A stretch of 64,000 nucleotides of DNA from Acidobacteriota bacterium (GCA_963664705.1 OY761556.1:5632001-5696000), one strand, 5' to 3'; shown: positions 39,562-64,000, counted from the first letter of the stretch. The notes: a model not told the origin generated them from the sequence alone. Program-made: numbers and translations.

Positions 39562-39738
39562 TCACCGGTGCCTATATCGAGCCGCCATCTTGCATATCGA
39601 TAGCGCCAGAAGGGTAAGAGAAATGGTTACGAAACATAAAACAGCATCCTTTGGACCGGCAATCCATTCGCAAAAGAGGTAAAGGCATAGCGCGAGAAAC
39701 TGCAGTTGAACGACTCGAATGACTACTTTGAGTAACAT
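39562..39738 (-). CDS. 58-aa two-TM protein, allele A
   Basis: GGAGGT RBS before ATG 39738; homolog at 53051-53227 keeps frame and length. Confidence 0.65.
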   Translation of the reverse strand: MLLKVVIRVVQLQFLALCLYLFCEWIAGPKDAVLCFVTISLTLLALSICKMAARYRHR

Positions 39739-39770
39739 GCGCTTCGTACCTCCATGGTTCGGGCTGCTCA

Positions 39771-39852
39771 ATCTGCTACAAATAGTTTTTTGTAGCAGAT
39801 GTGAAAAGCGATCGCATCCAAGTCAGATGCGGCTTGTAGCGGTGTAGCGGAT
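39771..39852. repeat. Iteron cluster downstream of the integrase, matching the Rep-associated repeat at 5517
   Basis: ATCTGCTACAAA/TTTGTAGCAGAT IR and TTGTAGCGGTGTAGCGGAT (39834-39852). Confidence 0.75.
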
Positions 39853-39888
39853 CTTTCCAGGGGTGCGGAAGGTCCCCCCTATGGCACC

Positions 39889-41103
39889 CTAAGATGCTAC
39901 AGCCTGCTTTCCCGAAATTATTGCGGTTAAGCGTTTGGCCCAAGCCTCCAAGGCCTCTTTCTTCTCCGCATCGTAACTGTGCCGGTCATAGACGGCGGTA
40001 ATATCCCTCTCGACATGATTCAGGATTTTTTTGACTGTAAGGCGTGGAATTCCCATTCCCGTCATCAGACTGGCGGCGGTGCGCCGGAAGTCATGACCAA
40101 CAAATTTGATCTTTGTGGCTCTTTGGATCCGCTCCAGTGCTTTCTGTGGATTGCTTATGTGCGTGTCGCCTTTAGGACTAGGAAAAACAAACCGCGAGTA
40201 CTCGTCCTTTCCTGCAATTGATCTCATTTCTTTAATAATGGATAGCGCTGGCTCACTGAGGGGAACCCGATGAGATAAGCCGTTCTTCGTTTTTGCTCCG
40301 GGGATTGTCCACCACCCGGAGTCAGTGTCAATTTCATCCCATTCTATGCCCATGACCTCAGCTCCTCGCTGAGCGGTCAGGAGTCTCAATTTCATGGTCC
40401 CGGCAGTAATAGCCTTTATCTTTAGATGTGATTCGTTTGTATCTTTCCTGTCGGCTTCTATGGCATCCCAAATGATCTTGATTTCATCTTCTGACAAAAC
40501 TCTGTCCCGCTGGTGCTCTTTTCCGGGTGCAGGTATCAAGTAGACTGGATTACTTTCGACAATGTCGGTGGTGATGGCCCAGTTGAAGATTTTTCGCAGA
40601 AGAGCCCGGATACGATTGGCCATTATTGGCGCAGTTAAGCTTTTACGTTCCAACAAGGCACGAACGTCTTTCCGGGTGATATCCTTGGCATACTGCCTGC
40701 CGAATTCCGGGATGAGGTCCTTTTTAATGACCCGTTCATCCTCCTGCCAGCTTTTCTTTTGGGTTTTGGCATGGCGCTCAATATATTCCAGGGCAACCTG
40801 TCTAAAGGTTAGTGCATGCCGTTCTTCCTGTTTCTCGGTAGCTGGATCCTGTCCGAGTTCTGCATTTCTGAGGGCTTTTGTAGCTTCGTTTCGTGCCTTG
40901 GCTAGACTCAGTAATGGGTAAGTGCCCAGTTTCATACGACGCAGGCGATCGCCGTGGCGATACATAACTCCAAAGCTCTTTTTCCCGTCTTGTGAGACAC
41001 GCAGGAAGAAGCCTGAAAGTGCTTTGTCGAAGTAGTCGACCTGCTTCCCAGGAACACCTTCCAGGAACTTAATTTTGGCGGCTGTGAATTTGATGGAGGG
41101 CAT
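39889..41103 (-). CDS. int: Tyrosine integrase with N-terminal arm-binding domain (P4-like)
   Basis: GFFLRVS...LGTYPLLSLAKAR; catalytic R (TAQR), K (KTKN), HDFRRT, LNH, Y (VYDR). Confidence 0.95.
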   Translation of the reverse strand: MPSIKFTAAKIKFLEGVPGKQVDYFDKALSGFFLRVSQDGKKSFGVMYRHGDRLRRMKLGTYPLLSLAKARNEATKALRNAELGQDPATEKQEERHALTFRQVALEYIERHAKTQKKSWQEDERVIKKDLIPEFGRQYAKDITRKDVRALLERKSLTAPIMANRIRALLRKIFNWAITTDIVESNPVYLIPAPGKEHQRDRVLSEDEIKIIWDAIEADRKDTNESHLKIKAITAGTMKLRLLTAQRGAEVMGIEWDEIDTDSGWWTIPGAKTKNGLSHRVPLSEPALSIIKEMRSIAGKDEYSRFVFPSPKGDTHISNPQKALERIQRATKIKFVGHDFRRTAASLMTGMGIPRLTVKKILNHVERDITAVYDRHSYDAEKKEALEAWAKRLTAIISGKQAVAS

Positions 41104-41125
41104 GGATTATCTCCCTTGATTTTCA

Positions 41126-41191
41126 AAAAGGTAACACAAAGGTAACAAAATATCCATGACTGTAGTGAAACGTAGTGAACCGTAGTGAAAC
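41126..41191. promoter_or_regulatory. Integrase arm-type sites and RDF-type repeats left of att
   Basis: AAAGGTAACA x2 followed by GTAGTGAA x3 at 10-bp period. Confidence 0.7.
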
Positions 41192-41299
41192 AACAAAATG
41201 TGATTATAATCAGTATCTATGCGGTGATAGTGCGGGAATAGGTTGTTTCACTGTTGTTCAGGACGTTTCTGTAAGTGTTGACAGGAGAGAAACCGAATT

Positions 41300-41345
41300 A
41301 CTGGCAGTCAGGAGGTCACGAGTTCGATCCTCGTCAGCTCCACCA
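41300..41345 (+). other. 3' half of tRNA-Ala(GGC); att core, not an intact tRNA
   Basis: A-CTGGCAG-TCAGG AGGTC ACGAG TTCGATC CTCGT CAGCTCC ACCA: anticodon loop, T arm and CCA; the 5' half is absent. Confidence 0.88.
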
Positions 41346-41350
41346 ATAGA

Positions 41351-51702: not shown

Positions 51703-52938
51703 CTAAACAAAGAACGGAAGTATGGATGATGCGCTGGAGACAACCAATGTTGCATCACCAACCCGGTACCGGGCTTGATAATTGGGCTGTTTGATTACTT
51801 GCAGAGCAAGCGGGCAATTTAGGTGCGGCAGAAAACGTTTGAAATGTGGAGAAGGTTGCGTGTCGTTCTCCTTAACCTCCACCGGCAGCCAGGGCTTCTT
51901 ATCTTTCACAATCAGGAAGTCAATTTCCTGTTTTTCTTTTGTCCTCAAATAAAACAATTCAAACAGGCCTTCTCCTGTATCCGTCCAATAGTGGCATGCC
52001 TTAAGAAGATGGGCCGCAACCAGGTTTTCGAATTTCGCAGCAGGATTGGTGATCTCCGAATAATCCCAGAGATAGAGTTTGCCTTCTCTTTTCAATGAAC
52101 GTGAAATTTTGGAGGTGAAGGGTTTGATCTCAAATGCATAATAGAGTTCAAATAAATACTGCATCCAGCGGCGAATAGTATCGAAACTGACCTCGAGGTC
52201 TTCTCGAAGCGAAGCGCGACTGAAAAGTGATCCGACTCTTTCCGGCAAAAGGGAGACCAATGCCTCAATCTGGCTCAGTTCGGGAATGCGCGATAAATCC
52301 CGCAGATCTTCTCGGATGACTTTCTCTATGCGGCCCCGGCGCCACAAAGTCAATCGCCTTTCTTCGCCGGCTAGAAAAGGCTCGGGGAAGCCTCCCAATC
52401 GAATGAGATCCTCCAACAGGGCCTGATCCCCCTTCCTATGGTGGCTGCTATCCTCCAGTATCCGTCTGCGAACCTGGTCCGGCGGCAATAGGGGATAACT
52501 GCCAACCTCCGCCAAGGTTAGGGGGTGCAGTCTGAAATGATAATAACGGCCCATCAGGCTGTCACTCCCCTTCCGGTAGATGCTCAATCTGGCGCTGCCG
52601 GTTACGAGAATGTCCGCGTGTAGATCCATAGTGTCGTAAACGCCTTTCAGCGTCTGTTTCCACTTCTTGGCTTTGTGAATTTCATCGAGCACCAAGAGAG
52701 GAACCTGCTGGCCGGATTTTTCGATGCGGTCGGATAAGAAGATCGATTTTGGTGACTTTGTCCAGAGACGACGGAATTCTGTCTCGTCCCAATTAAAATA
52801 TGCTCCGATTCTCCGGTCCTTCAGCAGCATTTTTCCAAGCGTTGTCTTGCCGCATTGGCGCGGCCCGGAAACGAATGACATTTTCCGATGTGCAAAGGAA
52901 AGATTTGTAAGTGCGTTTTCGATATACCGATGCAACAT
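51703..52938 (-). CDS. AAA_14 plus DUF4143 ATPase
   Basis: GPRQCGKT, LDEIH, TGSA, GGFP, KLYLWD, FEN, EIDF...EVK. Confidence 0.9.
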   Translation of the reverse strand: MLHRYIENALTNLSFAHRKMSFVSGPRQCGKTTLGKMLLKDRRIGAYFNWDETEFRRLWTKSPKSIFLSDRIEKSGQQVPLLVLDEIHKAKKWKQTLKGVYDTMDLHADILVTGSARLSIYRKGSDSLMGRYYHFRLHPLTLAEVGSYPLLPPDQVRRRILEDSSHHRKGDQALLEDLIRLGGFPEPFLAGEERRLTLWRRGRIEKVIREDLRDLSRIPELSQIEALVSLLPERVGSLFSRASLREDLEVSFDTIRRWMQYLFELYYAFEIKPFTSKISRSLKREGKLYLWDYSEITNPAAKFENLVAAHLLKACHYWTDTGEGLFELFYLRTKEKQEIDFLIVKDKKPWLPVEVKENDTQPSPHFKRFLPHLNCPLALQVIKQPNYQARYRVGDATLVVSSASSILPFFV

Positions 52939-53050: not shown

Positions 53051-53227
53051 TCACCGATGCCGGTATCGATTCACCCTTGCTAAAATCGTCCAAATCAGCA
53101 GGACTAAGGAAATAGTTACAAACCACAAAACGGCCTCCTTTGGACCGGCAATCCATTCGCAAAAGAGGTAAAGGCATAGCGCGAGAAACTGCAGTTGAAC
53201 GACTCGAATGACTACTTTGAGTAACAT
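53051..53227 (-). CDS. 58-aa two-TM protein, allele B
   Basis: N-half identical to allele A; C-half diverged but same length and ending RYRHR. Confidence 0.65.
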   Translation of the reverse strand: MLLKVVIRVVQLQFLALCLYLFCEWIAGPKEAVLWFVTISLVLLIWTILARVNRYRHR

Positions 53228-53377
53228 GCGCTTCGTACCTCCATGGTTCGGGCTGCTCAATCTGCTACAAATAGTTTTTTGTAGCAGATGTGAAAAGCGA
53301 TCGCATCCAAGTCAGATGCGGCTTGTAGCGGTGTAGCGGATCTTTCCAGGGGTGCGGAAGGTCCCCCCTATGGCACC

Positions 53378-54592
53378 CTAAGATGCTACAGCCTGCTTTC
53401 CCGAAATTATTGCGGTTAAGCGTTTGGCCCAAGCCTCCAAGGCCTCTTTCTTCTCCGCATCGTAACTGTGCCGGTCATAGACGGCGGTAATATCCCTCTC
53501 GACATGATTCAGGATTTTTTTGACTGTAAGGCGTGGAATTCCCATTCCCGTCATCAGACTGGCGGCGGTGCGCCGGAAGTCATGACCAACAAATTTGATC
53601 TTTGTGGCTCTTTGGATCCGCTCCAGTGCTTTCTGTGGATTGCTTATGTGCGTGTCGCCTTTAGGACTAGGAAAAACAAACCGCGAGTACTCGTCCTTTC
53701 CTGCAATTGATCTCATTTCTTTAATAATGGATAGCGCTGGCTCACTGAGGGGAACCCGATGAGATAAGCCGTTCTTCGTTTTTGCTCCGGGGATTGTCCA
53801 CCACCCGGAGTCAGTGTCAATTTCATCCCATTCTATGCCCATGACCTCAGCTCCTCGCTGAGCGGTCAGGAGTCTCAATTTCATGGTCCCGGCAGTAATA
53901 GCCTTTATCTTTAGATGTGATTCGTTTGTATCTTTCCTGTCGGCTTCTATGGCATCCCAAATGATCTTGATTTCATCTTCTGACAAAACTCTGTCCCGCT
54001 GGTGCTCTTTTCCGGGTGCAGGTATCAAGTAGACTGGATTACTTTCGACAATGTCGGTGGTGATGGCCCAGTTGAAGATTTTTCGCAGAAGAGCCCGGAT
54101 ACGATTGGCCATTATTGGCGCAGTTAAGCTTTTACGTTCCAACAAGGCACGAACGTCTTTCCGGGTGATATCCTTGGCATACTGCCTGCCGAATTCCGGG
54201 ATGAGGTCCTTTTTAATGACCCGTTCATCCTCCTGCCAGCTTTTCTTTTGGGTTTTGGCATGGCGCTCAATATATTCCAGGGCAACCTGTCTAAAGGTTA
54301 GTGCATGCCGTTCTTCCTGTTTCTCGGTAGCTGGATCCTGTCCGAGTTCTGCATTTCTGAGGGCTTTTGTAGCTTCGTTTCGTGCCTTGGCTAGACTCAG
54401 TAATGGGTAAGTGCCCAGTTTCATACGACGCAGGCGATCGCCGTGGCGATACATAACTCCAAAGCTCTTTTTCCCGTCTTGTGAGACACGCAGGAAGAAG
54501 CCTGAAAGTGCTTTGTCGAAGTAGTCGACCTGCTTCCCAGGAACACCTTCCAGGAACTTAATTTTGGCGGCTGTGAATTTGATGGAGGGCAT
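53378..54592 (-). CDS. int: Tyrosine integrase, second identical copy
   Basis: Same 404-aa translation as 39889-41103. Confidence 0.95.
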   Translation of the reverse strand: MPSIKFTAAKIKFLEGVPGKQVDYFDKALSGFFLRVSQDGKKSFGVMYRHGDRLRRMKLGTYPLLSLAKARNEATKALRNAELGQDPATEKQEERHALTFRQVALEYIERHAKTQKKSWQEDERVIKKDLIPEFGRQYAKDITRKDVRALLERKSLTAPIMANRIRALLRKIFNWAITTDIVESNPVYLIPAPGKEHQRDRVLSEDEIKIIWDAIEADRKDTNESHLKIKAITAGTMKLRLLTAQRGAEVMGIEWDEIDTDSGWWTIPGAKTKNGLSHRVPLSEPALSIIKEMRSIAGKDEYSRFVFPSPKGDTHISNPQKALERIQRATKIKFVGHDFRRTAASLMTGMGIPRLTVKKILNHVERDITAVYDRHSYDAEKKEALEAWAKRLTAIISGKQAVAS

Positions 54593-54788
54593 GGATTATC
54601 TCCCTTGATTTTCAAAAAGGTAACACAAAGGTAACAAAATATCCATGACTGTAGTGAAACGTAGTGAACCGTAGTGAAACAACAAAATGTGATTATAATC
54701 AGTATCTATGCGGTGATAGTGCGGGAATAGGTTGTTTCACTGTTGTTCAGGACGTTTCTGTAAGTGTTGACAGGAGAGAAACCGAATT

Positions 54789-54834
54789 ACTGGCAGTCAG
54801 GAGGTCACGAGTTCGATCCTCGTCAGCTCCACCA
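54789..54834 (+). other. 3' half of tRNA-Ala(GGC); second att core
   Basis: Same sequence as 41300-41345. Confidence 0.88.
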
Positions 54835-55062
54835 ATAACCTCTTAAAATACAATCATTTACAATCGGAGAAAAAGAATCAGATAATGCATCTTTCGTTGG
54901 GTGCGCCTGGGGTGCGGATTACTTTTAACGCCGATGTGAATAGATAAGACCTGATTAGTAAAATGGGACATACTGCAAACCCAACCAAGAGGGCTCCATT
55001 TAAGGCAGAGCCTCTTGGTTGGGTTGGTGAGCCTGAGGTGCCCACTTATTTCTAACCTCCTA

Positions 55063-55269
55063 TTACTCCTCTTCTTTCCACTGGCCGTTTGCAATTGCGT
55101 CTCCAACAGATTGGCCACTGTTCACCTGCAGCTTTAGGACTTCGCCTGTATCCGTATTCTCTATAAGCTCTGTTGTGCCGTATAGTAGCGAGAACGGGAA
55201 AGATAGTGCATTTGCCAACGATTGGCTTGCGTCGGGATCTTCGCCGAGGTGCTTATATTTTTCTGCCAT
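55063..55269 (-). CDS. Small acidic hypothetical protein
   Basis: GGAG RBS; 68 aa. Confidence 0.55.
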   Translation of the reverse strand: MAEKYKHLGEDPDASQSLANALSFPFSLLYGTTELIENTDTGEVLKLQVNSGQSVGDAIANGQWKEEE

Positions 55270-55456
55270 AGTTTATACTCCAATAAAACCTAAGAGAGAT
55301 CGGAGCTTGTTATACTATTCTCCTCTGCTCTTCTCTCTGGATGGATTGATTACCAGGAACAAACAACCGATTCTCAGAATCGCCTTGTGTTTCCCCGGCC
55401 GCTTTCAAACCAATTTGAATCGATAATGTGCCTGTCGATCCGATTGGCTAGTGGTT

Positions 55457-55490
55457 AAAACCGAAGCTCCTCAAAAGTGAGGAGCTTCGG
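55457..55490 (-). terminator. Rho-independent terminator
   Basis: 13-bp stem CCGAAGCTCCTCA/TGAGGAGCTTCGG followed by TTTT on the minus strand. Confidence 0.75.
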
Positions 55491-55505
55491 CGATCACTTC
55501 TGTGG

Positions 55506-55595
55506 TTAATTGTCTACTTCAGGACTATCAGCGTTGCTGTCCTCACTGTAATCATCAGAAGAAACGGACTCGTCGTCCGCGGAAAAATGGATCAT
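55506..55595 (-). CDS. 29-aa highly acidic peptide
   Basis: GGAGG RBS; MIHFSADDESVSSDDYSEDSNADSPEVDN; terminator directly downstream. Confidence 0.55.
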   Translation of the reverse strand: MIHFSADDESVSSDDYSEDSNADSPEVDN

Positions 55596-55779
55596 GGTGT
55601 CGTCCTCCATTTAACGAGTGGTGGTAACGCTTCTATGTTGCTTTAATCGGACCCTTCCGTTATCTTGCCCCGAAATGACATCCGACGTGAAAAGGTATAG
55701 CTTGCTTCCGCCCGCGTTCTCAAGGCATGGAAAGGTCATAAAAAGGACAACTTGCACATCGTTTACACGAGGTTAAAAA

Positions 55780-57336
55780 ATGGCAAGAAAAAGACATAGT
55801 GCGAGGTCTCCTTCAAATGGCAGAAAAACGATGAGGACTTGTAAAAAAGAGGTGGTTTCACATCGGGAATGGGGGGACCATTTTAACAAAATTCGCAAAG
55901 AACTTGCGTGGACGATAGAACAAACGGCTTTACATGTGGACCTAAGCACTGGCTGGGTTAAAAGAGCCATCAGCGGACAAAGCTTAATTGGATCCTTGCG
56001 TACGAGCGCTGAAGAAATCCTGAGAGATGAATGGAAGAGGAAATTTCCAGACAGACCATTTCTCGAATTTCCATATTGGATGCCCTGGTCGGAAACGGAG
56101 ATCAGTAATGATTTCGAGAATACATCAAAATTCGATCAGGCTATTTTGCAACAAGAAGAGGGTCTCGTTGATATCTCACCATATTCAACACGGACGGATG
56201 CTGTTTCTGTTAATTGTGAGAACAAGGTTCATCCTCTCGTCGAGGCGCTTAATATTCCCTTGACTAATGATTTCAGAACCGACCCGCTTCTGCTAAGGTC
56301 ACTTGATTTAGAGAAGACAATCGTAATTGGACACGTGATCGAGATTGCAAGTTATCATAAGTACAAAGGAATTACTGGGGCGGAGATCTTAGTCAGTATT
56401 GAGGGTAAAGCCATCCAATACCTTTCGCCTACTGTTCGTGATTTGGTTAGTGAAAGCCGCGCTAATTTGGTCAGTATTGGGAAAAAGGCGGCGAAGGAGT
56501 CCCGCGAAAAACAAGCAGTATTTGAGAGGGATCAATGCGAAACAAAGCTGCATTTAAAACCACCACATGGATTAGGAGGATTCATTCTAGATTCGGGGAA
56601 TGCCCACATTCACCTGTGCCGAAATGATTGGTTCACATGGCTTGCAATGAAGCAATTCACGAATGATATAAAGCGAGATGTGGCTAAAAATGGGCTGGAC
56701 TCTTTCCCTAATCGCCTGGATGTAGTATTGGGCATCTTGAGTGCATCTCAAGATAAAATTCTTATGGGGCTTCGCAGCCGCGATTCCGAATGTCTGGAAT
56801 CTGAGGTAGGTGTATGGGCATTGCCGGGTGAGCAAATGATCTTAGAAGAAAAGAATGGCATGCTCGTTGATGCTGACCCTGCTGGGATTCCAATGCCTGA
56901 AAAAACTGTTAGAAGGGCATTGCATGAACCCGATGAGACGGGATTTCCGGGCAAGTGGGCAAACGACCCCAACGTCACAGTTAGGTTTGTCGCCGCAGCA
57001 ACAGAATGGAATTATTTAATGACCAACCTTTTCGCGGTGGTATCGCTGGCCGAGTACATGTCTGAAGAGCGCTGCAATAATTTCCTGCCGAAAAAGGGCG
57101 AGCACGTAATGTGGGATTGGTTTCCGCTTAATGTGGAATCAATCGTGGATCTGATATGCAGAGGAACGTACGAAAAATTTGGTGTGGTTAATTCGAAAGC
57201 TCCATTGGCAGATTTCGCCAGATATGGACTACTTGTTGCAGCCTTTAACAAATTTGGGTATGAGGCCGTCTCTGAGTACATACTCCGGAGAGGTGAGAAT
57301 AAACAATTTGGGCTTAAGCCTTCGTCGTCTCTTTAA
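55780..57336 (+). CDS. XRE-like HTH plus C-terminal Nudix-like protein
   Basis: IRKELAWTIEQTALHVDLSTGWVKRAISG; ILMGLRS...GVWALPGEQM...VRRALHEPDETG degenerate Nudix box. Confidence 0.6.
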   Translation: MARKRHSARSPSNGRKTMRTCKKEVVSHREWGDHFNKIRKELAWTIEQTALHVDLSTGWVKRAISGQSLIGSLRTSAEEILRDEWKRKFPDRPFLEFPYWMPWSETEISNDFENTSKFDQAILQQEEGLVDISPYSTRTDAVSVNCENKVHPLVEALNIPLTNDFRTDPLLLRSLDLEKTIVIGHVIEIASYHKYKGITGAEILVSIEGKAIQYLSPTVRDLVSESRANLVSIGKKAAKESREKQAVFERDQCETKLHLKPPHGLGGFILDSGNAHIHLCRNDWFTWLAMKQFTNDIKRDVAKNGLDSFPNRLDVVLGILSASQDKILMGLRSRDSECLESEVGVWALPGEQMILEEKNGMLVDADPAGIPMPEKTVRRALHEPDETGFPGKWANDPNVTVRFVAAATEWNYLMTNLFAVVSLAEYMSEERCNNFLPKKGEHVMWDWFPLNVESIVDLICRGTYEKFGVVNSKAPLADFARYGLLVAAFNKFGYEAVSEYILRRGENKQFGLKPSSSL

Positions 57337-57479
57337 TTCGCTGCGCTCCTGCTTTCCGGTCAGCCCCAGCAACCAAATGCCCCATTAACCATGCAAATTG
57401 CAACAAAAGGCACGACAGGATTTAAGTTGATTGTCATCGAGTGGCTATTTTTTTTTCTTAGCTGGATGACAGGTTTTCG

Positions 57480-58223
57480 TCAGCTGAGATCCGGGGCGTC
57501 TTTAGTGTTCTTTCCCGAAATAATTTCGGAATACTTTGACAAATGAGCTTCTGCCCCTTGAACACTATCAAGGTGCTCTGCAATCTCAGAATCATCCAAA
57601 AGCCTGGCAGCCAATTTGTTGCCGGAGGAATTAGCCAAAACAGCTATCTGCTGGGGTCCCTTAATTCCTCCTGGATTTACATCGATTGCATGCTCTAATG
57701 CCCAAGATACCGCGAAAACACCCTCGTTCAGCCGAGGAATAGTGTTTTTCCAAAAAACCCTTCTCATTAGCCCTAAGAATGGATCAGTGATAGGTTGTCC
57801 ACTGCCCATTGATACATACCACATATTCGTATCCTTAAATTCGGGCTGAAAATCAGTAATTGATAACTCACACAAATAGGGCTTGTCTCTATAGGGAAAT
57901 GCTACCAATGCGCCATAAGCACCCTGATTGGCTCGGGTGAATGAGAAATCCGAAATGCCGCTGGCGCATAACTGCTTTCCAATATCTATGTACGATTTTT
58001 CTTTAGAAAAGATGTGTCGATCCCACAAATCCTGAACAACTGTCCTAAAACGTTGGCCGAGTCCCACTTGTCCCGTTCCAGCGACTATTATGGAATTTTC
58101 AATTATTGATATTTTTTTTACGGGCTGCTCAATTGTAGAAACGGTACCGGCGCCAAATGTTGCAGAACTATCTGAACCAATGACAACTCCATCCTGGCAC
58201 ATCAAACCAAGTAGGACGGTCAT
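57480..58223 (-). CDS. Proteasome-beta/HslV-like Ntn peptidase
   Basis: M-T1VLLG...GVVIGSD17S, KKI, AGTG, SMGSG, DVNPGG. Confidence 0.8.
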   Translation of the reverse strand: MTVLLGLMCQDGVVIGSDSSATFGAGTVSTIEQPVKKISIIENSIIVAGTGQVGLGQRFRTVVQDLWDRHIFSKEKSYIDIGKQLCASGISDFSFTRANQGAYGALVAFPYRDKPYLCELSITDFQPEFKDTNMWYVSMGSGQPITDPFLGLMRRVFWKNTIPRLNEGVFAVSWALEHAIDVNPGGIKGPQQIAVLANSSGNKLAARLLDDSEIAEHLDSVQGAEAHLSKYSEIISGKNTKDAPDLS

Positions 58224-58228
58224 ATACA

Positions 58229-58669
58229 CTAGCCCTGGAAAACGCTGTTGGCTTTCATTTCTGGGTAGGCTTTGTAAATTGCCGAAACCAGGTCTGCGAA
58301 AGAAAGGCTACGAACTATGTTTGATAATCTTGTAATAGTCTGAACCACCTCTGGGTCCAGAGAAGAAAGCACACTTTCTCCGACTACCTGTCCAGCGGAA
58401 GTAGTGCGGTATTTTCTCAATCGCATACTAGGTGATTTTATTATTTCAACCAACCCGGAATCTGCTAGTACATCCAGAATGTCATAAACATCCCGGTCAA
58501 ATGGCCCATAATCATATGGTTCGAAGTTGAAATGCGGGCCGTCTAGTTCCTTCGATAACTTACGATCGAGTAGAAAGAGGAGTTTTTGCATCTGCACCGG
58601 CGAATGCAATGCTCCTTTTGAAACGGCCATTGCTGCCAAAACCAGATCGCGGTTACCCATAACTCCCAA
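58229..58669 (-). CDS. Panacea/SocA/YwgA-like winged-helix protein
   Basis: QMQKLLFL...FNFEPYDYGPFDRDVYD...L...GLV. Confidence 0.7.
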   Translation of the reverse strand: MGVMGNRDLVLAAMAVSKGALHSPVQMQKLLFLLDRKLSKELDGPHFNFEPYDYGPFDRDVYDILDVLADSGLVEIIKSPSMRLRKYRTTSAGQVVGESVLSSLDPEVVQTITRLSNIVRSLSFADLVSAIYKAYPEMKANSVFQG

Positions 58670-58919
58670 GATACCATATTTTTGTTATGGTACGACTAAC
58701 TTATCGGCATACTCATCATATTCCATGGACTTTGGAGTTACTGATGCCACTGAGGATTTACAGCATGCCTTTTAGTATTACTGTGTCATAAATATATATC
58801 AAACCCGCATAAACAGCGGGTTTGATGCGTTTTCACGCTCCAGAGCGACCATGCTGAAACCCGCACCAGGCAAGGGTTAGTATTAGACCCCCAATACAAA
58901 ATGCCCTTAAACGTCGAAT

Positions 58920-58972
58920 GGTGATTTTGATGCTGAATGCCCAAGCTGTTCTTTAACGTAAGTCAGTGGTTC
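58920..58972 (-). pseudogene. 53-bp relic of a related integrase (box II region)
   Basis: Encodes EPLTYVKEQLGHS then frameshifts; aligns to about 59500-59553 (ESLTYVKEQLGHSSIKIT). Confidence 0.65.
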
Positions 58973-59250
58973 ATGCAAATGTTTAGCGTAGGTCGCGGGA
59001 AAAGGATTCGCGGTAGCTCGGATGTTTCCGACACTTGGGGACTCTTGAGAATTCTGGGTTTTGCTTTATAAAATCAGAATTTATATAGACCCCGATTCCG
59101 ATGCCGGGCAGGGCTTTCATTATTTTCAAGGTATACCCCCCAGTGGTGACGGGCACCTATTGAGATTGCATTTCAGATTTGCTGAAGGGAAGCTGGAGGC
59201 AACTGGCTCCCTCCAATTTAGTTTTTGGGGAGCCACGTCGTCGGATGTGA

Positions 59251-60552
59251 TCAAAGTCTTCCTGGTGTGTTGCTAAATACAATTGGTGCGCTTGTCACCA
59301 ACAATTGCGGAATGCCTGTTCCGGTCAGTTTAGAAACGGCAGTACCTTCGAAACCATGTGATCGTGCGCTTGTGAGCTTCTGAATTTGCATCGTGGCAAT
59401 GGTCGGCTGATCTACCGCGGTCTGCACGATATTGAGGTGGGGCAGACGGTTCACTGCTTGCCGGTTTGCGCCAGGCACCAAATGGCCGTAAATATCCACG
59501 GTGATTTTGATGCTGGAATGCCCAAGCTGCTCTTTAACATAGGTCAGGGATTCCCCATTCTGAAGAAGCAATGAGGCGAATGTGTGCCTTAGATCGTGAA
59601 ATCTGATGCTGCGCAGGCCGGCTTTCTCCAGACATTTCTGAAAATGCCGCTTCTTTAAATTTTTCATGTCCCGGAAGCCACCATTTTGGTTGGGAAAGAT
59701 CCAGTCTGTTTCTGGTAATTCGTTTTTGCCTTGGGCTAGAAACAATTCCTTTCGCTTACGTCGCAAGTCCAAAAGCGCTGATAGCAGCGCATCTGAAACA
59801 TCAACCTTCCTGATCTTACCTGATTTTGTGAGGTTGATTTTTCCGCGGACAATTCCTCTCCGAATAATCAGGAATTTGCCATTTTTATCGAAGTCGCCCC
59901 ATTGAAGTCCGGCCAGTTCTCCAGAGCGCAAACCCGTGTGAATGGCGCAGAGGAAAAGAGCAAAATGTTTTGGTGAATGCTTATTGACAGCCTCAAGGAA
60001 TTTTATAACTTCATCATTTGTAAGTGGCTGGATCTCTCTGTGTCGTATTGGTGCCTGCCTGTAAAATTCACCCAAGCGGGTTGCCGGGTTGTCTGCAATC
60101 AGTCGCGCCCGCAGCGCTTTATTCAGCATTTTTCGAAGTGTTGCCAGTGTGAGCCTGATTGTATCCTTAGCAAGTCCCTTGCTTACAAGAGAGGAGACAA
60201 ATTCCTCCACACGCTCCCGGGTTATTTCATCAAGGCGCAGCGCTCCTAATTCCTCCCTGAGGTCAACATTGTAGCGTCCCTCGTAACAGTTCCGGGTTGA
60301 TTCGCGAACGGAACCATCCAGCGTTTTCTTGAACCGCTCAAAATATGCATCCAGAGTCGGGGCTGGGGGAGAATCCTTTTTCTTTTCATCTTCTATTGTC
60401 TGGCCTAGTTTGAGCCGAGCTTCGATGTGTTCCTTTACCTTCAGCGCTGCCTTTTCCGAGCCAACTCGTTTGGATTTGCGCTTACCGTGGTGGTTTATAA
60501 ATACCCACCAAGTACCGGAACCTTTAACCTTTTCCCTGATTTGAACTCCCAT
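59251..60552 (-). CDS. int: Tyrosine integrase (second type)
   Basis: TGLRSGE, TKSG, FHDLRHTFAS, QLGHSSI...DIYGH. Confidence 0.95.
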   Translation of the reverse strand: MGVQIREKVKGSGTWWVFINHHGKRKSKRVGSEKAALKVKEHIEARLKLGQTIEDEKKKDSPPAPTLDAYFERFKKTLDGSVRESTRNCYEGRYNVDLREELGALRLDEITRERVEEFVSSLVSKGLAKDTIRLTLATLRKMLNKALRARLIADNPATRLGEFYRQAPIRHREIQPLTNDEVIKFLEAVNKHSPKHFALFLCAIHTGLRSGELAGLQWGDFDKNGKFLIIRRGIVRGKINLTKSGKIRKVDVSDALLSALLDLRRKRKELFLAQGKNELPETDWIFPNQNGGFRDMKNLKKRHFQKCLEKAGLRSIRFHDLRHTFASLLLQNGESLTYVKEQLGHSSIKITVDIYGHLVPGANRQAVNRLPHLNIVQTAVDQPTIATMQIQKLTSARSHGFEGTAVSKLTGTGIPQLLVTSAPIVFSNTPGRL

Positions 60553-60710
60553 CCGTCACCGCCCTTCCATGCCGGATAGGCATAACAGATGAGTGAATTG
60601 CAGATGCAATACGGGTAGAATGGACTCAGCCATCTCTTCCTCCTTAGTAGGAAGACTGGTTAGGGGCCGATGGATGCTCGCTACATCCTCCGGTCCCGCT
60701 TTCCAGCGGA

Positions 60711-60896
60711 TTATTTGGAATGCTTCTTGATTGCCATTGTGATCCCCTCGCGCACGAAATAGGACACCGGCAAACCCTCCCTTTCTGAAATCTTTTCCAG
60801 CTGTTTCAATTCCGATTCGGTTAACCGGACGCCGATTTGGTGCTTCTTTCTGTCGACGTCCGGAATCAATCGAAGTCCTTTGCGAGGAGCCATCAA
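60711..60896 (-). CDS. Ribbon-helix-helix (CopG-like) regulator
   Basis: QIGVRLTESELKQLEKISEREGLPVSYFVREGI. Confidence 0.75.
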   Translation of the reverse strand: MMAPRKGLRLIPDVDRKKHQIGVRLTESELKQLEKISEREGLPVSYFVREGITMAIKKHSK

Positions 60897-61120
60897 TTAT
60901 GTTTACCATTATGATTACCACTTTGTCAATCAGATAATGAAAGATAATTTCCTACGCGTAAACTGTCTGGCTTTCATTTTGAATTTGGATTTCCGCACCC
61001 CCCGCGCACCCGGCGGGTGGTTGCAAGTTTGTTTGACTAGGCTGTTGTTGGGCAACTTTTGCTAAATCAGGTGGTTAGCATTTCCGGCTGTGATAGTGAC
61101 CCCCTGACTACGTATTATTT

Positions 61121-61399
61121 TCAATCCAAAAGCCCTTCCATTACTTCGTCTACCATGAGATCGAGATCGGGCCAGTCGTTTTTCTCTATGTGTTTCTCCA
61201 TCCATTTCTCTAGGTCTGATTTCTTAAACAGCAGCTTAGATCCGACACGATGATGCTTGATCTCGGGCAGGAGCTTTCTGATAGTTCTTTCGGATAAATT
61301 GAGGTATTCAATCGCCTCGGAAAGGGACAGATATCGATCCTGGTTCAAATACGCAATGACTTCTTTGACCGATACCAAACCCTGCAGAACTTGGTCCAT
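61121..61399 (-). CDS. Excisionase-like HTH protein
   Basis: YLSLSEAIEYLNLSERTIRKL...RVGSKLLFKKSDLEKWM. Confidence 0.85.
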   Translation of the reverse strand: MDQVLQGLVSVKEVIAYLNQDRYLSLSEAIEYLNLSERTIRKLLPEIKHHRVGSKLLFKKSDLEKWMEKHIEKNDWPDLDLMVDEVMEGLLD

Positions 61400-61456
61400 G
61401 CCCGACAGACTCCTAAACGAGAGACCCGATCTTTTGACTTTTTGATTTGATGATTG

Positions 61457-61981
61457 TTAGGACAGCCGTTCGTGTTTCTTTATTTGTTCAATTCTTTGCG
61501 CTAATTCCAAAAGGTTCTTCAGCCTTTCATCCGAAAGGACATCCCGGCCTGGATCCTGCACTTTGAGTTCTCGTTGGAGACTGCCGGAGATTTCTGTCGA
61601 TACTCTTTCACGGTACTTCTCGGGTTTGACGGCTTTGAGAAGAAAGATAAGAAGAGTTGTCGACCCCGGGTCGCGCTTGTCCTGCGCTCGCTCAAAGGCG
61701 AGTGACTCAAGATTATCGCCGGCTATTTCCTGCGCATACTCGAAGGCTTTTCTGTATTCGGGATCCTTCAGCCAATGGTAGTGGCTCGAACGGTCGACCC
61801 CGGCAATCTGGGCAGCCCTGGTCAACATGCCGGTTGTTGAGAAGGCTACCAGGAAAGCCCTTTTTTTAGGATGTGGAATATAGCTGAAGAGCTGGTTTTC
61901 CTTTGGTTGAACCCATTCTTCTCCTAGTGGCTCGACCGATTGGGCTGCTTCATATTTTACGAGGCTTATGGCATTAGTCAT
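61457..61981 (-). CDS. Terminase small subunit-like protein
   Basis: KRAFL...G...AAQIAGVDRSSHYHW...LE...RA...LLIFLLKAVKPEKYRE; AGGAGG RBS. Confidence 0.75.
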   Translation of the reverse strand: MTNAISLVKYEAAQSVEPLGEEWVQPKENQLFSYIPHPKKRAFLVAFSTTGMLTRAAQIAGVDRSSHYHWLKDPEYRKAFEYAQEIAGDNLESLAFERAQDKRDPGSTTLLIFLLKAVKPEKYRERVSTEISGSLQRELKVQDPGRDVLSDERLKNLLELAQRIEQIKKHERLS

Positions 61982-62146
61982 TTGATACTCCCTCCTCCTG
62001 ATTGGTGGTTTCGGTGGCAAGCGTATGCTCTTTGTTTTGTTGAAGTTAGTCTGGTTGGATTTGACTACTGGACAAGTATTGTGACTGTATTCATGAAGGC
62101 TTGTCTGCAGACCTGAACTTCAGTACGCTATCTTTTTACTTTCGGA

Positions 62147-62420
62147 TGCGAACCTTGCTATCCCCCGCGAACGTTATCCCTCGCTGGTTCGCAAGCCGTA
62201 AATCTTTATTTCCTAATTGCATATAGATTGTTTGCGAACGTGCGAGCCAAAATTCGATTTCCACCAATAATTACTAATAAATGAAAGCCCAGAGAATACT
62301 TCTCTCACCAGTAGAAAGAAGTTCGCAGGTTCGCACAAATAGTATTAATAGTGAAAATAGAATGATTTAGCGCATGCGAACCTCTGGTGATGAAGGTTCG
62401 CATAGGTTCGCAGGTTCGAG
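62147..62420. repeat. Iteron array (GGTTCGCA/TGCGAACC) with AT-rich spacers; putative origin
   Basis: About 11 exact or near copies in both orientations immediately downstream of the primase-helicase gene. Confidence 0.75.
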
Positions 62421-62427
62421 GCATAGG

Positions 62428-63951
62428 TCATTGCTTTTCGGGTGATTCAATGCCCCGATCGGCTTTCATCAGCTTCCATTGTGGGTACCCTTTCCGAACG
62501 GTAGCTTCTGTGATTTGTAAGCCACCAATGATACAGTCACGTTTCTTTTGCAAAAGAGTCCCGAGACGCGTGGCAGCTGAATGATCAGAACCATCGCCTA
62601 AACCGAAACCGTCCGCACATACAACAAGCTCCCCGGCCTTAACTGGGCAATCCCTGTATTTATCCCACCAACTCAGTAGGAATTTTGTCCAGAGAGCAGT
62701 TTCGGAGTCGGTTTGATCATAAAAGTTTTCACGATTTTCCAAAAATCCCGGGATTTCGGCGCACTCAAGTATGCCGCCAATAATATCGCTCCAGCTTTCG
62801 AAACTGCCGAGCCGATGCCCATTAAATTTAGGACGACCTCGAGCAACCCAGTTTTGGATTAGAGTGAGTACCGCCCATACGAGTTGTGGGCGATTTTCAG
62901 AGACCCAGCCACGCAGGTCGGGGTGCTTAAAGTCTTTTTCGGATCTCTCATAAGGACGCTCCATCTTGGCATCCATTCGAATCTGAATCGTCCTTCGTGA
63001 TAGCTCTTTTGAAAACTGTAGGTTATTCCCGGTTATAACGCATGCACATCTATTTGGAACTCTTTGTACATCGGAGCTGCCTACACGGCGGTCAACATAG
63101 TATTCGGAGGTTGTAATGGCAGAAAGAGCCGCAGAATCAAGCACACGACCAACATTATCAATGATCAGCATTTCCGGACTGCTTAAAAGCATTGAGAATA
63201 ATGTTCGGCGCATTTCGCTTTCATCGGGAGGAGCTGACATATTAGAAGGCCTTTCTCCAGAGATGACATAAGCCAACGTATCACAAAGCAGGCTTGCTCC
63301 GGTTCCTGGGGTTGGCTTATCAATCCCATATAAAGGAGTTGGCCCTGATATCATTTCTCGGGCAGGCTGTTGCAGGATAAGCGCGATGGCATTTGCAAGA
63401 TCGGAACGATTTGTAAACGGAAAATCGAAAAGCAATTCCTCAATTAATAGCCGACGTGCCTCCGTCACCTCCAATGCGGATGGATTTTGAGATACGGAAG
63501 GTAATACGAACCCTGGCATTTGATAATAGTAGATGTTTGCCGCCGGATTATATCCAGGACAAGTCTGTTGGATTCCATCAGCGGCAAAGATAGGGGATCT
63601 AGTAATCCTTTTGAGCGGCGGAAACTCGATCCATGGAAGGGACATAATATCCCTAATTACTTCCAATGGAGGGAAGGCAGGAATTTCATCATCCCCTTTG
63701 AAGGTATAATACTCGGCAGCGCGTGCCGCTTCCCCTCTCATTCCGTCAATCCCTAATTTTGATATCTGGGGGGCTCCTGTCTCGTCGTACCCAATACGGA
63801 CAATGGAGCTACCTCGAGAAAAAATTCGTACAGGCGAATTAGCCAGATGGAGGGCATCTAATGTCTCTCGGACTGCAGACGCTAAATCTTTGTTGCCGGC
63901 ATAAATTCTTGGCAGACCAAAGTTATCTGGATTAAGGGAAATACATTTCAT
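62428..63951 (-). CDS. Primase-associated helicase-like replication protein
   Basis: PGYNPA, DFPF, PGTGASLL, IIDNV, ITGNNL, RRTI, GSFESW. Confidence 0.75.
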   Translation of the reverse strand: MKCISLNPDNFGLPRIYAGNKDLASAVRETLDALHLANSPVRIFSRGSSIVRIGYDETGAPQISKLGIDGMRGEAARAAEYYTFKGDDEIPAFPPLEVIRDIMSLPWIEFPPLKRITRSPIFAADGIQQTCPGYNPAANIYYYQMPGFVLPSVSQNPSALEVTEARRLLIEELLFDFPFTNRSDLANAIALILQQPAREMISGPTPLYGIDKPTPGTGASLLCDTLAYVISGERPSNMSAPPDESEMRRTLFSMLLSSPEMLIIDNVGRVLDSAALSAITTSEYYVDRRVGSSDVQRVPNRCACVITGNNLQFSKELSRRTIQIRMDAKMERPYERSEKDFKHPDLRGWVSENRPQLVWAVLTLIQNWVARGRPKFNGHRLGSFESWSDIIGGILECAEIPGFLENRENFYDQTDSETALWTKFLLSWWDKYRDCPVKAGELVVCADGFGLGDGSDHSAATRLGTLLQKKRDCIIGGLQITEATVRKGYPQWKLMKADRGIESPEKQ

Positions 63952-64000
63952 CTTTGTCTCTAGTTGTTCCGACGTGGAACAAGGATGTTCGAGAGAATTC

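Follow-up and report, generated by a model that had tools for sequence, protein, structure and literature searches.

The locus described here raises the question of what a stand-alone peptidase of the proteasome beta fold does beside a small winged-helix protein, and whether the two constitute one system. The window, that is, the whole stretch of 64,000 nucleotides which was analysed, comes from an Acidobacteriota bacterium (GCA_963664705.1 OY761556.1:5632001-5696000) and carries both genes on the minus strand. The upstream gene (P0002, 58660..58229, minus strand, ATG start) encodes a partner protein of 143 amino acids, a winged-helix protein of the Panacea-clan and DarG-C-terminal-like type, and the downstream gene (P0001, 58223..57480, minus strand) encodes the peptidase of 247 amino acids, an Ntn peptidase of the proteasome-beta fold. 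According to the ORF coordinates only 5 bp separate the partner stop from the peptidase start (58224..58228, minus strand), as the preliminary description had claimed. The partner start given in it, a TTG at 58669 which would add three codons, has to be corrected, because the homologues align from the ATG at 58660.

The peptidase begins with Met-Thr, and its D18, K37, G51 and S138-M-G-S-G are, when counted after removal of the methionine, the equivalents of Thr1, Asp17, Lys33 and Gly47 and the GSG loop, the same residue set as in the accessible text of PMC8665760. Thr2, Asp18, Lys37 and Gly51 are kept in all 126 non-redundant intact pairs, in every one of which the start codon immediately precedes the Thr, so there is no propeptide. 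The Ntn layout with Thr1 after Met removal, proposed from the single sequence, thus extends to 126/126 relatives, and the fold is supported by Pfam, Foldseek and VIA. The window's peptidase scores 31.4 bits with Pfam Proteasome (PF00227, cut-off 22.4, E 1.8e-7), and its AlphaFold model (pLDDT 92.6) matches 20S beta subunits both in Foldseek (E 1e-11, TM 0.6-0.7) and in VIA (Z 21.4, rmsd 2.5, 180 residues). The longest structural alignment is that to Anbu (5loy; Z 20.4, rmsd 3.8, 217 residues, 11% identity), and HslV and BPH follow with Z 18.2. In a profile search the nearest solved relatives are archaeal beta subunits, and the 48 profile matches (E 0.1) include no Anbu chain. In the model the core continues into a long C-terminal helix (211-235), whose hydrophobic residues recur in a 3-4 pattern. 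Catalytic activity as a threonine peptidase is predicted from these residues.

The family is large, with 947 matches at 90% clustering and 520 clusters at 50% identity (E up to 1e-30), and a distant Chloroflexota subfamily (L238-L243), only 19% identical to the window's protein, keeps the same upstream partner. PADLOC gave no match for the peptidase or for four of its distant relatives, and tblastn of the peptidase found none among 72,556 plasmid or 50,697 phage records. Two familiar identities were rejected. The protein is not a 20S proteasome beta subunit, as it scores 29.2 bits against 224 for TIGR03634, has no propeptide and has no conserved alpha gene nearby; nor is it HslV, as it has no conserved ATPase neighbour, possesses the helix 211-235 (H5) and occurs in a host with a separate HslV-like gene. 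In the host genome the beta-subunit profile found only the window's peptidase and that HslV-like gene, which lies about 4.6 Mb from the pair. The early observation that HslU, the proteasome alpha subunit and Pup machinery are missing from the neighbourhood holds as well, none being recognised among the annotated ORFs of window positions 50-64 kb and the next 30 kb.

A proteasome-like fold does not necessarily mean broad proteolysis, and the enzyme might be a narrow Ntn amidase, isopeptidase or ligase of the connectase kind, with a single target, which may be a small molecule, a conjugate or a protein, and with the partner as the subunit that confers specificity or inhibition. The accessible text of PMC8665760 describes connectase as a ligase and knows of no function for Anbu, and the near-invariant family-specific residues of the 126 pairs (Q57, R58, E119, Q126-P-E-x-K130 and D147) suggest a defined ligand. 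Connectase (Z 11.6-11.8) and the acylases are nevertheless much more distant from the peptidase in fold than 20S beta, Anbu, HslV and BPH, which reach Z 18-21, and the model has helices H1-H2 and lacks the connectase insertion. A narrow enzyme is thus very unlikely as the explanation of the pair, although it would be compatible with a toxin-antitoxin reading.

The partner is modelled as a winged-helix protein with pLDDT 94.1, its last residues having low confidence in the monomer model. Among solved structures, the DarG chain in 7yk3, a DarTG complex, comes closest (Foldseek E 2e-4), and the alignment to the DarG C-terminal domain covers 138 residues, the whole length of the partner, with Z 10.6 and rmsd 5.0 (the next match has 8.7); no Panacea or PanA structure is among the fold-search matches listed. 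The Panacea profile (PF13274) gives 21.2 bits, below the Pfam cut-off of 25.7, and at E 1e-3 it is matched by 20 of 80 partner members, the best with 1.8e-5. Of the Panacea/SocA-like label given earlier, the Panacea-clan part therefore stands on a weak match, below the cut-off, the closest fold being the DarG C-terminal domain. SocA identity was rejected, as the score with NF047745 is 17.5 bits against a cut-off of 190 and the adjoining gene is the peptidase, not SocB.

In PADLOC all 80 partner members match the N-terminal part of PDC-M19A, a partner-like domain joined to DUF488, and 78 of the 80 match DarG and a type I specificity model, in both cases in the C-terminal part, the match of the window's own partner to DarG being limited to residues 166-272 of 329. 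Because of these matches to PDC-M19A, DarG and type I specificity models, the partner domain is, on sequence grounds, regarded as a reusable conflict-system domain of the Panacea/DarG-C clan. A fusion of the partner-like domain to DUF488 (L064:3521-4342, PDC-M19A, E 3e-78) adjoins the pair in a type I R-M locus. Partner-like genes also occur without a peptidase in viral contigs and genomes (L180:6001-7220, L182:2140-2589, L184:3389-4219 and L199:1276-1944), namely as one tandem pair, one gene between portal and head genes, and two genes with C-terminal extensions. The conserved motifs of the partner are P-x-Q-x-QK-x-x-F, YGPFD and YP-x-M-x-x-NSVF; G52-P53 is invariant, and the third position is Phe in 123 of the 126 (the PanA signature is GPV).

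A winged helix could also mean DNA binding, and the polarity of the pair could be reversed: the peptidase would cleave the partner, itself a repressor (or a toxin), in the manner of ImmR/ImmA or RosmerTA. The fold agrees with this, as do matches to the PadR and MarR families (PadR is matched by 12/80 members), and protease antitoxins and anti-repressors are known, as described in the accessible text of PMC10440598. The partner is nonetheless unlikely to be a repressor, judging from its sequence, because the helix equivalent to the DNA-reading recognition helix is net acidic in 120 of the 126 (mean -2.7) and no upstream palindrome is common to more than 4 of 119 loci. In addition, no regulated gene is conserved nearby, and intact partners persist without a peptidase, which argues against a toxic partner. 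A regulatory cassette or reversed polarity is thus highly improbable. The partner is likely an antitoxin or a sensor.

The two genes are associated far beyond the window. A peptidase set of 86 loci was composed of the window's own locus, the best 80 of 155 genome loci and 5 viral loci, and a partner set of 98 loci of the best 80 of 437 metagenome loci and 18 viral loci. In this survey, which the preliminary description had proposed as a check, the partner was present at 83 of the 86 peptidase loci, two of the three misses being at contig ends, and the peptidase at 87 of the 98 partner loci. The 83 comprise 76 tandem pairs, whose genes are -4 to +25 bases apart, 6 convergent pairs and 1 pair split by an insertion into the peptidase. 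The pair has hosts with at least 18 phylum labels, methanogenic archaea included, and one locus (L026) belongs to the cultured isolate Piscinibacter caeni MQ-18. In a 401-genome Chloroflexota sample the peptidase was matched in 9 genomes, six of them at only 36-48 bits, and the partner adjoined in 9/9. Archaeal matches served as a negative control: the 158 at about 40 bits, nearly all true beta subunits, were not counted as members, and none of 28 archaeal beta-subunit loci of comparable score had an adjoining partner. No third conserved gene appeared among the 1,589 ORFs of the 86 loci, the next cluster being IS1595 transposases at 9 loci, and no ATPase gene is conserved with the pair at these loci. 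One apparent partner-peptidase fusion (P0397, 386 aa) was rejected as a frameshifted gene call, as it has off-frame stretches and its catalytic N-terminus is missing.

Mean identity is 47% for the partner and 44% for the peptidase. Pairwise distances in one protein correlate with those in the other (Spearman 0.44, with 0/500 permutations as high), for which shared descent alone can suffice. Fourteen close pairs, 4 of them saturated, were used for dN/dS, which is 0.02-0.18 for both genes in 9 of the 10 measurable pairs and about 0.49 in the tenth; both genes are under purifying selection. The convergent arrangement accounts for 8 of the 126 pairs, which are hence not co-transcribed. Such pairs cluster in a mainly alphaproteobacterial clade of a quick tree and occur again in one Chloroflexota genome; the tail-to-tail loci are L057, L060, L070, L078, L080, L081, L143, L164 and L236.

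In the window the pair belongs to a 51.6-kb island bounded by copies of the tRNA-Ala(GGC) 3' end, the left edge being the att copy at 54789..54838 (plus strand), and the cargo of the island comprises the pair, a type I R-M system, GmrSD, an AAA_21 ATPase and a DUF4011 helicase. Next to the pair stands a satellite-like block with a tyrosine integrase (59251..60552, minus strand) and genes for an RHH regulator, an excisionase-like HTH protein, a small terminase-like protein and a primase-like protein (60711..64000, minus strand), which continues beyond the window end. The att-proximal slot in a satellite-like element that had been described is supported by these neighbours, but the att belongs to a tRNA-Ala(GGC) island array and no direct repeats delimiting the satellite-like block were found. 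Between integrase and pair there are a terminator-like hairpin with an 11-bp stem and a T-rich run (58798..58826, minus strand; a consensus match only) and, as a recombination scar adjoining the pair, a degenerate 78-bp copy (58896..58972, minus strand) with 82% identity to the integrase segment 59477-59553. Because this degenerate C-terminal coding segment of the integrase sits between the integrase and the pair, it suggests that the cargo was captured by recombination at the integrase 3' end. The sequence from 54809 to 62500 is reproduced without difference in contigs of two sequencing runs of the same sample. The GC content of the pair is 44.5% vs 53.2% for the genome. Promoter-like sites are at chance level (3 found vs 3.6 expected), Rfam has no match in 50-64 kb, and there is no tRNA gene in the window.

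Several other features of the surroundings may be recorded. A 1,734-bp segment containing a tyrosine integrase and a tRNA-Ala(GGC) att copy is duplicated with 99.6% identity at 39615-41348 and 53105-54837, and att copies at 41300 and 54789 and, beyond the window, at about 106438, 111871 and 121488 make up a tandem island array at one tRNA. A 20-bp direct repeat at 54899-54918 and, beyond the window, at about 106336-106355 is nested inside the tRNA-Ala att pair; it contains 14 bases complementary to the 3' end of tRNA-Arg(CCT) and is possibly an older att pair. An ORF of 518 amino acids (55780-57336, plus strand), convergent with the pair in the same low-GC slot, has no match in Pfam, NCBIfam, PHROG or PADLOC, and the region 51703-52938 (minus strand) encodes an ATPase with AAA_14 and DUF4143, which matches the PADLOC candidate PDC-S01 (E 7e-51).

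The pair is an accessory, mobile two-gene module. Within the host phylum, 401 genomes gave the peptidase in 5, the partner in 6 and both in 4, and neither was found in the 6 genomes of the host family; the GC content of the pair is below that of the distal flanks in 44 of 48 loci. In one genome (G399) a 2.5-kb IS1595 element, which has terminal inverted repeats and is flanked by 8-bp target duplications, carries nothing but the pair as cargo, and four intact copies of it stand at three or more sites. IS1595 elements enclose the pair also at L022, L065 and L067, terminal repeats and 8-bp duplications being present in four genomes; the element coordinates are L052:8490-10965, L022:5851-12345, L065:8518-11889 and L067:7594-13182, and at L022 and L067 a canonical Panacea gene is also close to the pair. 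In viral contigs, in which a single-protein scan gave no match and alignment searches gave 5 (peptidase) and 18 (partner) loci, the pair adjoins portal and capsid genes. A satellite setting, in which the pair was first described, is thus not a defining one, as the pair is also found on IS1595 elements, in proviruses and alone between housekeeping genes. The expected co-location with defence genes does exist: by hand classification R-M, TA and Abi families account for 30 of 287 nearest neighbours vs 6 of 150 genes drawn from the 265 distal ones (p 0.026). The association is real but modest, as a neighbour of these families occurs at just 22 of the 81 loci, and many pairs stand alone between housekeeping genes.

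The losses of the two genes are one-sided. After identical copies and loci cut by contig ends were removed, 15 of 72 intact partners had a broken peptidase or none beside them (12 of 65 when only close partners are considered), whereas 1 of 74 intact peptidases had a broken partner or none, which gives a Fisher p of about 1e-4 for two counts that come from different collections, each search favouring intact copies of its own query. These counts also have to be read with the facts that the peptidase gene is 1.7 times longer, that some breaks may be sequencing errors, that kin are non-independent and that, the partner being upstream, a single deletion can take the partner and the peptidase N-terminus together. 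Even the peptidase-anchored set, whose search selects against such loci, contains 3 broken peptidases with intact partners. The partner-less peptidases L062, L188 and L193/L194 are all without the catalytic N-terminus; L193/L194 are deletion copies of an IS element, of which L197 is the opposite derivative with the partner intact and the peptidase broken. The loci L168-L170 do not differ from L156 over the partner, but their peptidase breaks off after about 10 codons. The one exception is L051, where an intact peptidase adjoins a partner with a frameshift, which is possibly an error, the assembly being based on long reads. Because the peptidase is often lost beside a kept partner and almost never the reverse, the peptidase is likely, as far as sequence comparison can tell, a toxin and the partner its restraint.

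The preliminary description had left two readings side by side, a toxin held by an antitoxin and an adaptor with a protease, and the one-sided loss favours the former. According to the latter, the partner would recognise a phage or host protein and deliver it to an ATP-independent protease, neither protein being toxic alone. In its favour, SocA, a Panacea-domain protein, is a ClpXP adaptor according to the accessible text of PMC8832971, the partner shows high conservation, the pair is not accompanied by an ATPase gene and convergent pairs persist. An adaptor predicts equal tolerance of either loss, against the counts given above; moreover, the PanA antitoxins tested are independent of ClpXP and Lon and bind directly, as stated in the accessible text of PMC8832971, and the partner's SocA score is far below the cut-off. 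The adaptor with its protease is thus unlikely.

The explanation held here, with somewhat better than even confidence, is a module resembling type II toxin-antitoxin systems, with a threonine peptidase as the toxin and a probably defensive role. As in type II systems, the module consists of two genes, is accessory and mobile, and often loses the peptidase but hardly ever the partner while the peptidase is intact, subject to the sampling caveats named with the counts. As there is no propeptide, the catalytic Thr would become free as soon as the initiator Met is cleaved off; the peptidase would be ready to cut once made and would need restraint from the start. The upstream partner, co-translated, would bind and inhibit the peptidase. 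The release cue may be a phage protein that binds the partner, or the loss of the partner when host synthesis stops, and the freed peptidase would then cleave host (or phage) proteins and arrest the cell, with abortive infection or addiction to the carrying element as the outcome. Prediction of a 1:1 complex gave scores of 0.41, 0.28 and 0.21, that is, a median of 0.28 vs a mark of 0.32, and is counted neither for nor against binding. Several facts speak against the toxin-antitoxin reading: the partner misses the Panacea cut-off, the convergent pairs are not co-transcribed, L051 keeps an intact peptidase beside a frameshifted partner, the defence enrichment is modest and there is no match in curated plasmid or phage records. 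In addition, conservation of the partner equals that of the enzyme, and this would suit an activator or a sensor as well.

This last point leads to a sensor-activator with a latent peptidase, in which the partner, on sensing infection, would dock its conserved C-terminal NSVF-xx tail between the subunits. HslU or HbYX tails dock between subunits in a comparable manner. Phe141 of the partner is kept in 124 of the 126 and is followed by exactly two residues in 87 and by one to five in all, the tail being of low confidence in the monomer model. Furthermore, Panacea has been proposed as a sensor (PMC10440598, accessible text), and isolated proteasome subunits are inactive before assembly (PMC8665760, accessible text). 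The sensor-activator leaves the one-sided loss unexplained, and the NSVF motif may be structural, because it is kept in peptidase-less orphans and within the longer fusion L184; this explanation is decidedly unlikely.

A more specific form of the defence idea is that of a minimal ATP-independent immune proteasome, in which the peptidase would self-assemble into a ring, or into a split ring like that of Anbu, be shut by a Panacea-type sensor and be released by a phage cue to break down proteins, with abortive infection as the result. It is possible, though on the doubtful side; if true, it would be the first proteasome-fold toxin and would give a first function to an orphan family of proteasome homologues across many phyla. 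If the toxin-antitoxin reading is true, threonine proteolysis joins the activities of TA toxins, the Panacea/DarG-C clan is extended to protease inhibition, and the proteasome fold is tied to bacterial conflict systems, from which a compact, switchable protease may result. As it stands, a near-obligate partner is now assigned to one large proteasome-like family.

The two-gene module is real and widespread, and apparently undescribed. In agreement with the earlier claim, no description of the pairing was found in the titles and abstract beginnings of freely searchable papers. Fuchs, Alva and Lupas (2021) distinguish 22 proteasome-like families, for which the accessible text mentions no informative genomic context and no co-occurring partner (PMC8665760). 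The window's peptidase family is probably WPH-like, WPH being one of the group II proteasome homologues, and was compared by described traits, no accession compared here being that of a representative: the accessible text of PMC8665760, which gives WP_040339656.1 as the WPH representative, describes a bacterial and archaeal range, closest affinity to beta subunits, a long C-terminal helix (H5), no long insertion and no propeptide, all shared by the present family. WPH is listed there with actinobacterial and crenarchaeal members, and neither group occurs among the best 80 of 155 genome loci here. Anbu likewise shares the helix H5, which forms coiled coils in Anbu (PMC8665760, accessible text), and the 217-residue alignment to 5loy, but differs in its low identity, in its absence from the profile matches and in that the window's family is without a conserved multi-gene operon. 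SocAB of Caulobacter is similar in that a Panacea-clan protein is linked to proteolysis; SocA, however, sends the toxin to the host ClpXP (PMC8832971, accessible text), whereas here the protease adjoins and is probably the toxin itself.

The likeness to DarTG lies in the DarG C-terminal domain (7yk3), which matches the structure of the partner best and from end to end, and DarG binds and inhibits its own toxin (PMC8832971, accessible text). The difference is that the partner stands alone here, with no macrodomain and no DarT ADP-ribosyltransferase as neighbour. The terms "proteasome" in the main texts, and "proteasome", "HslV" and "Ntn" in the supplements, are absent from the accessible parts of Kurata 2022 (PMC8832971) and Ernits 2023 (PMC10440598), in which an unannotated toxin cluster could be the window's peptidase family. 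The PanAT systems treated in these papers are two-gene, patchy and mobile, with a small stand-alone Panacea-clan protein beside a variable effector, as far as their accessible texts describe (PMC8832971, PMC10440598), and stand-alone Panacea domains neutralise toxins directly (PMC10440598, PMC8832971, the same parts). A GP-x motif stands in both, with a different third residue: YGPF in the partner here vs GPV in PanA (PMC8832971, accessible text). The present partner differs in being below the Pfam cut-off and in a subfamily of its own, and the effector beside it is a proteasome-fold peptidase. The pair is best read, then, as a Panacea-clan toxin-antitoxin or defence system with a new class of effector.
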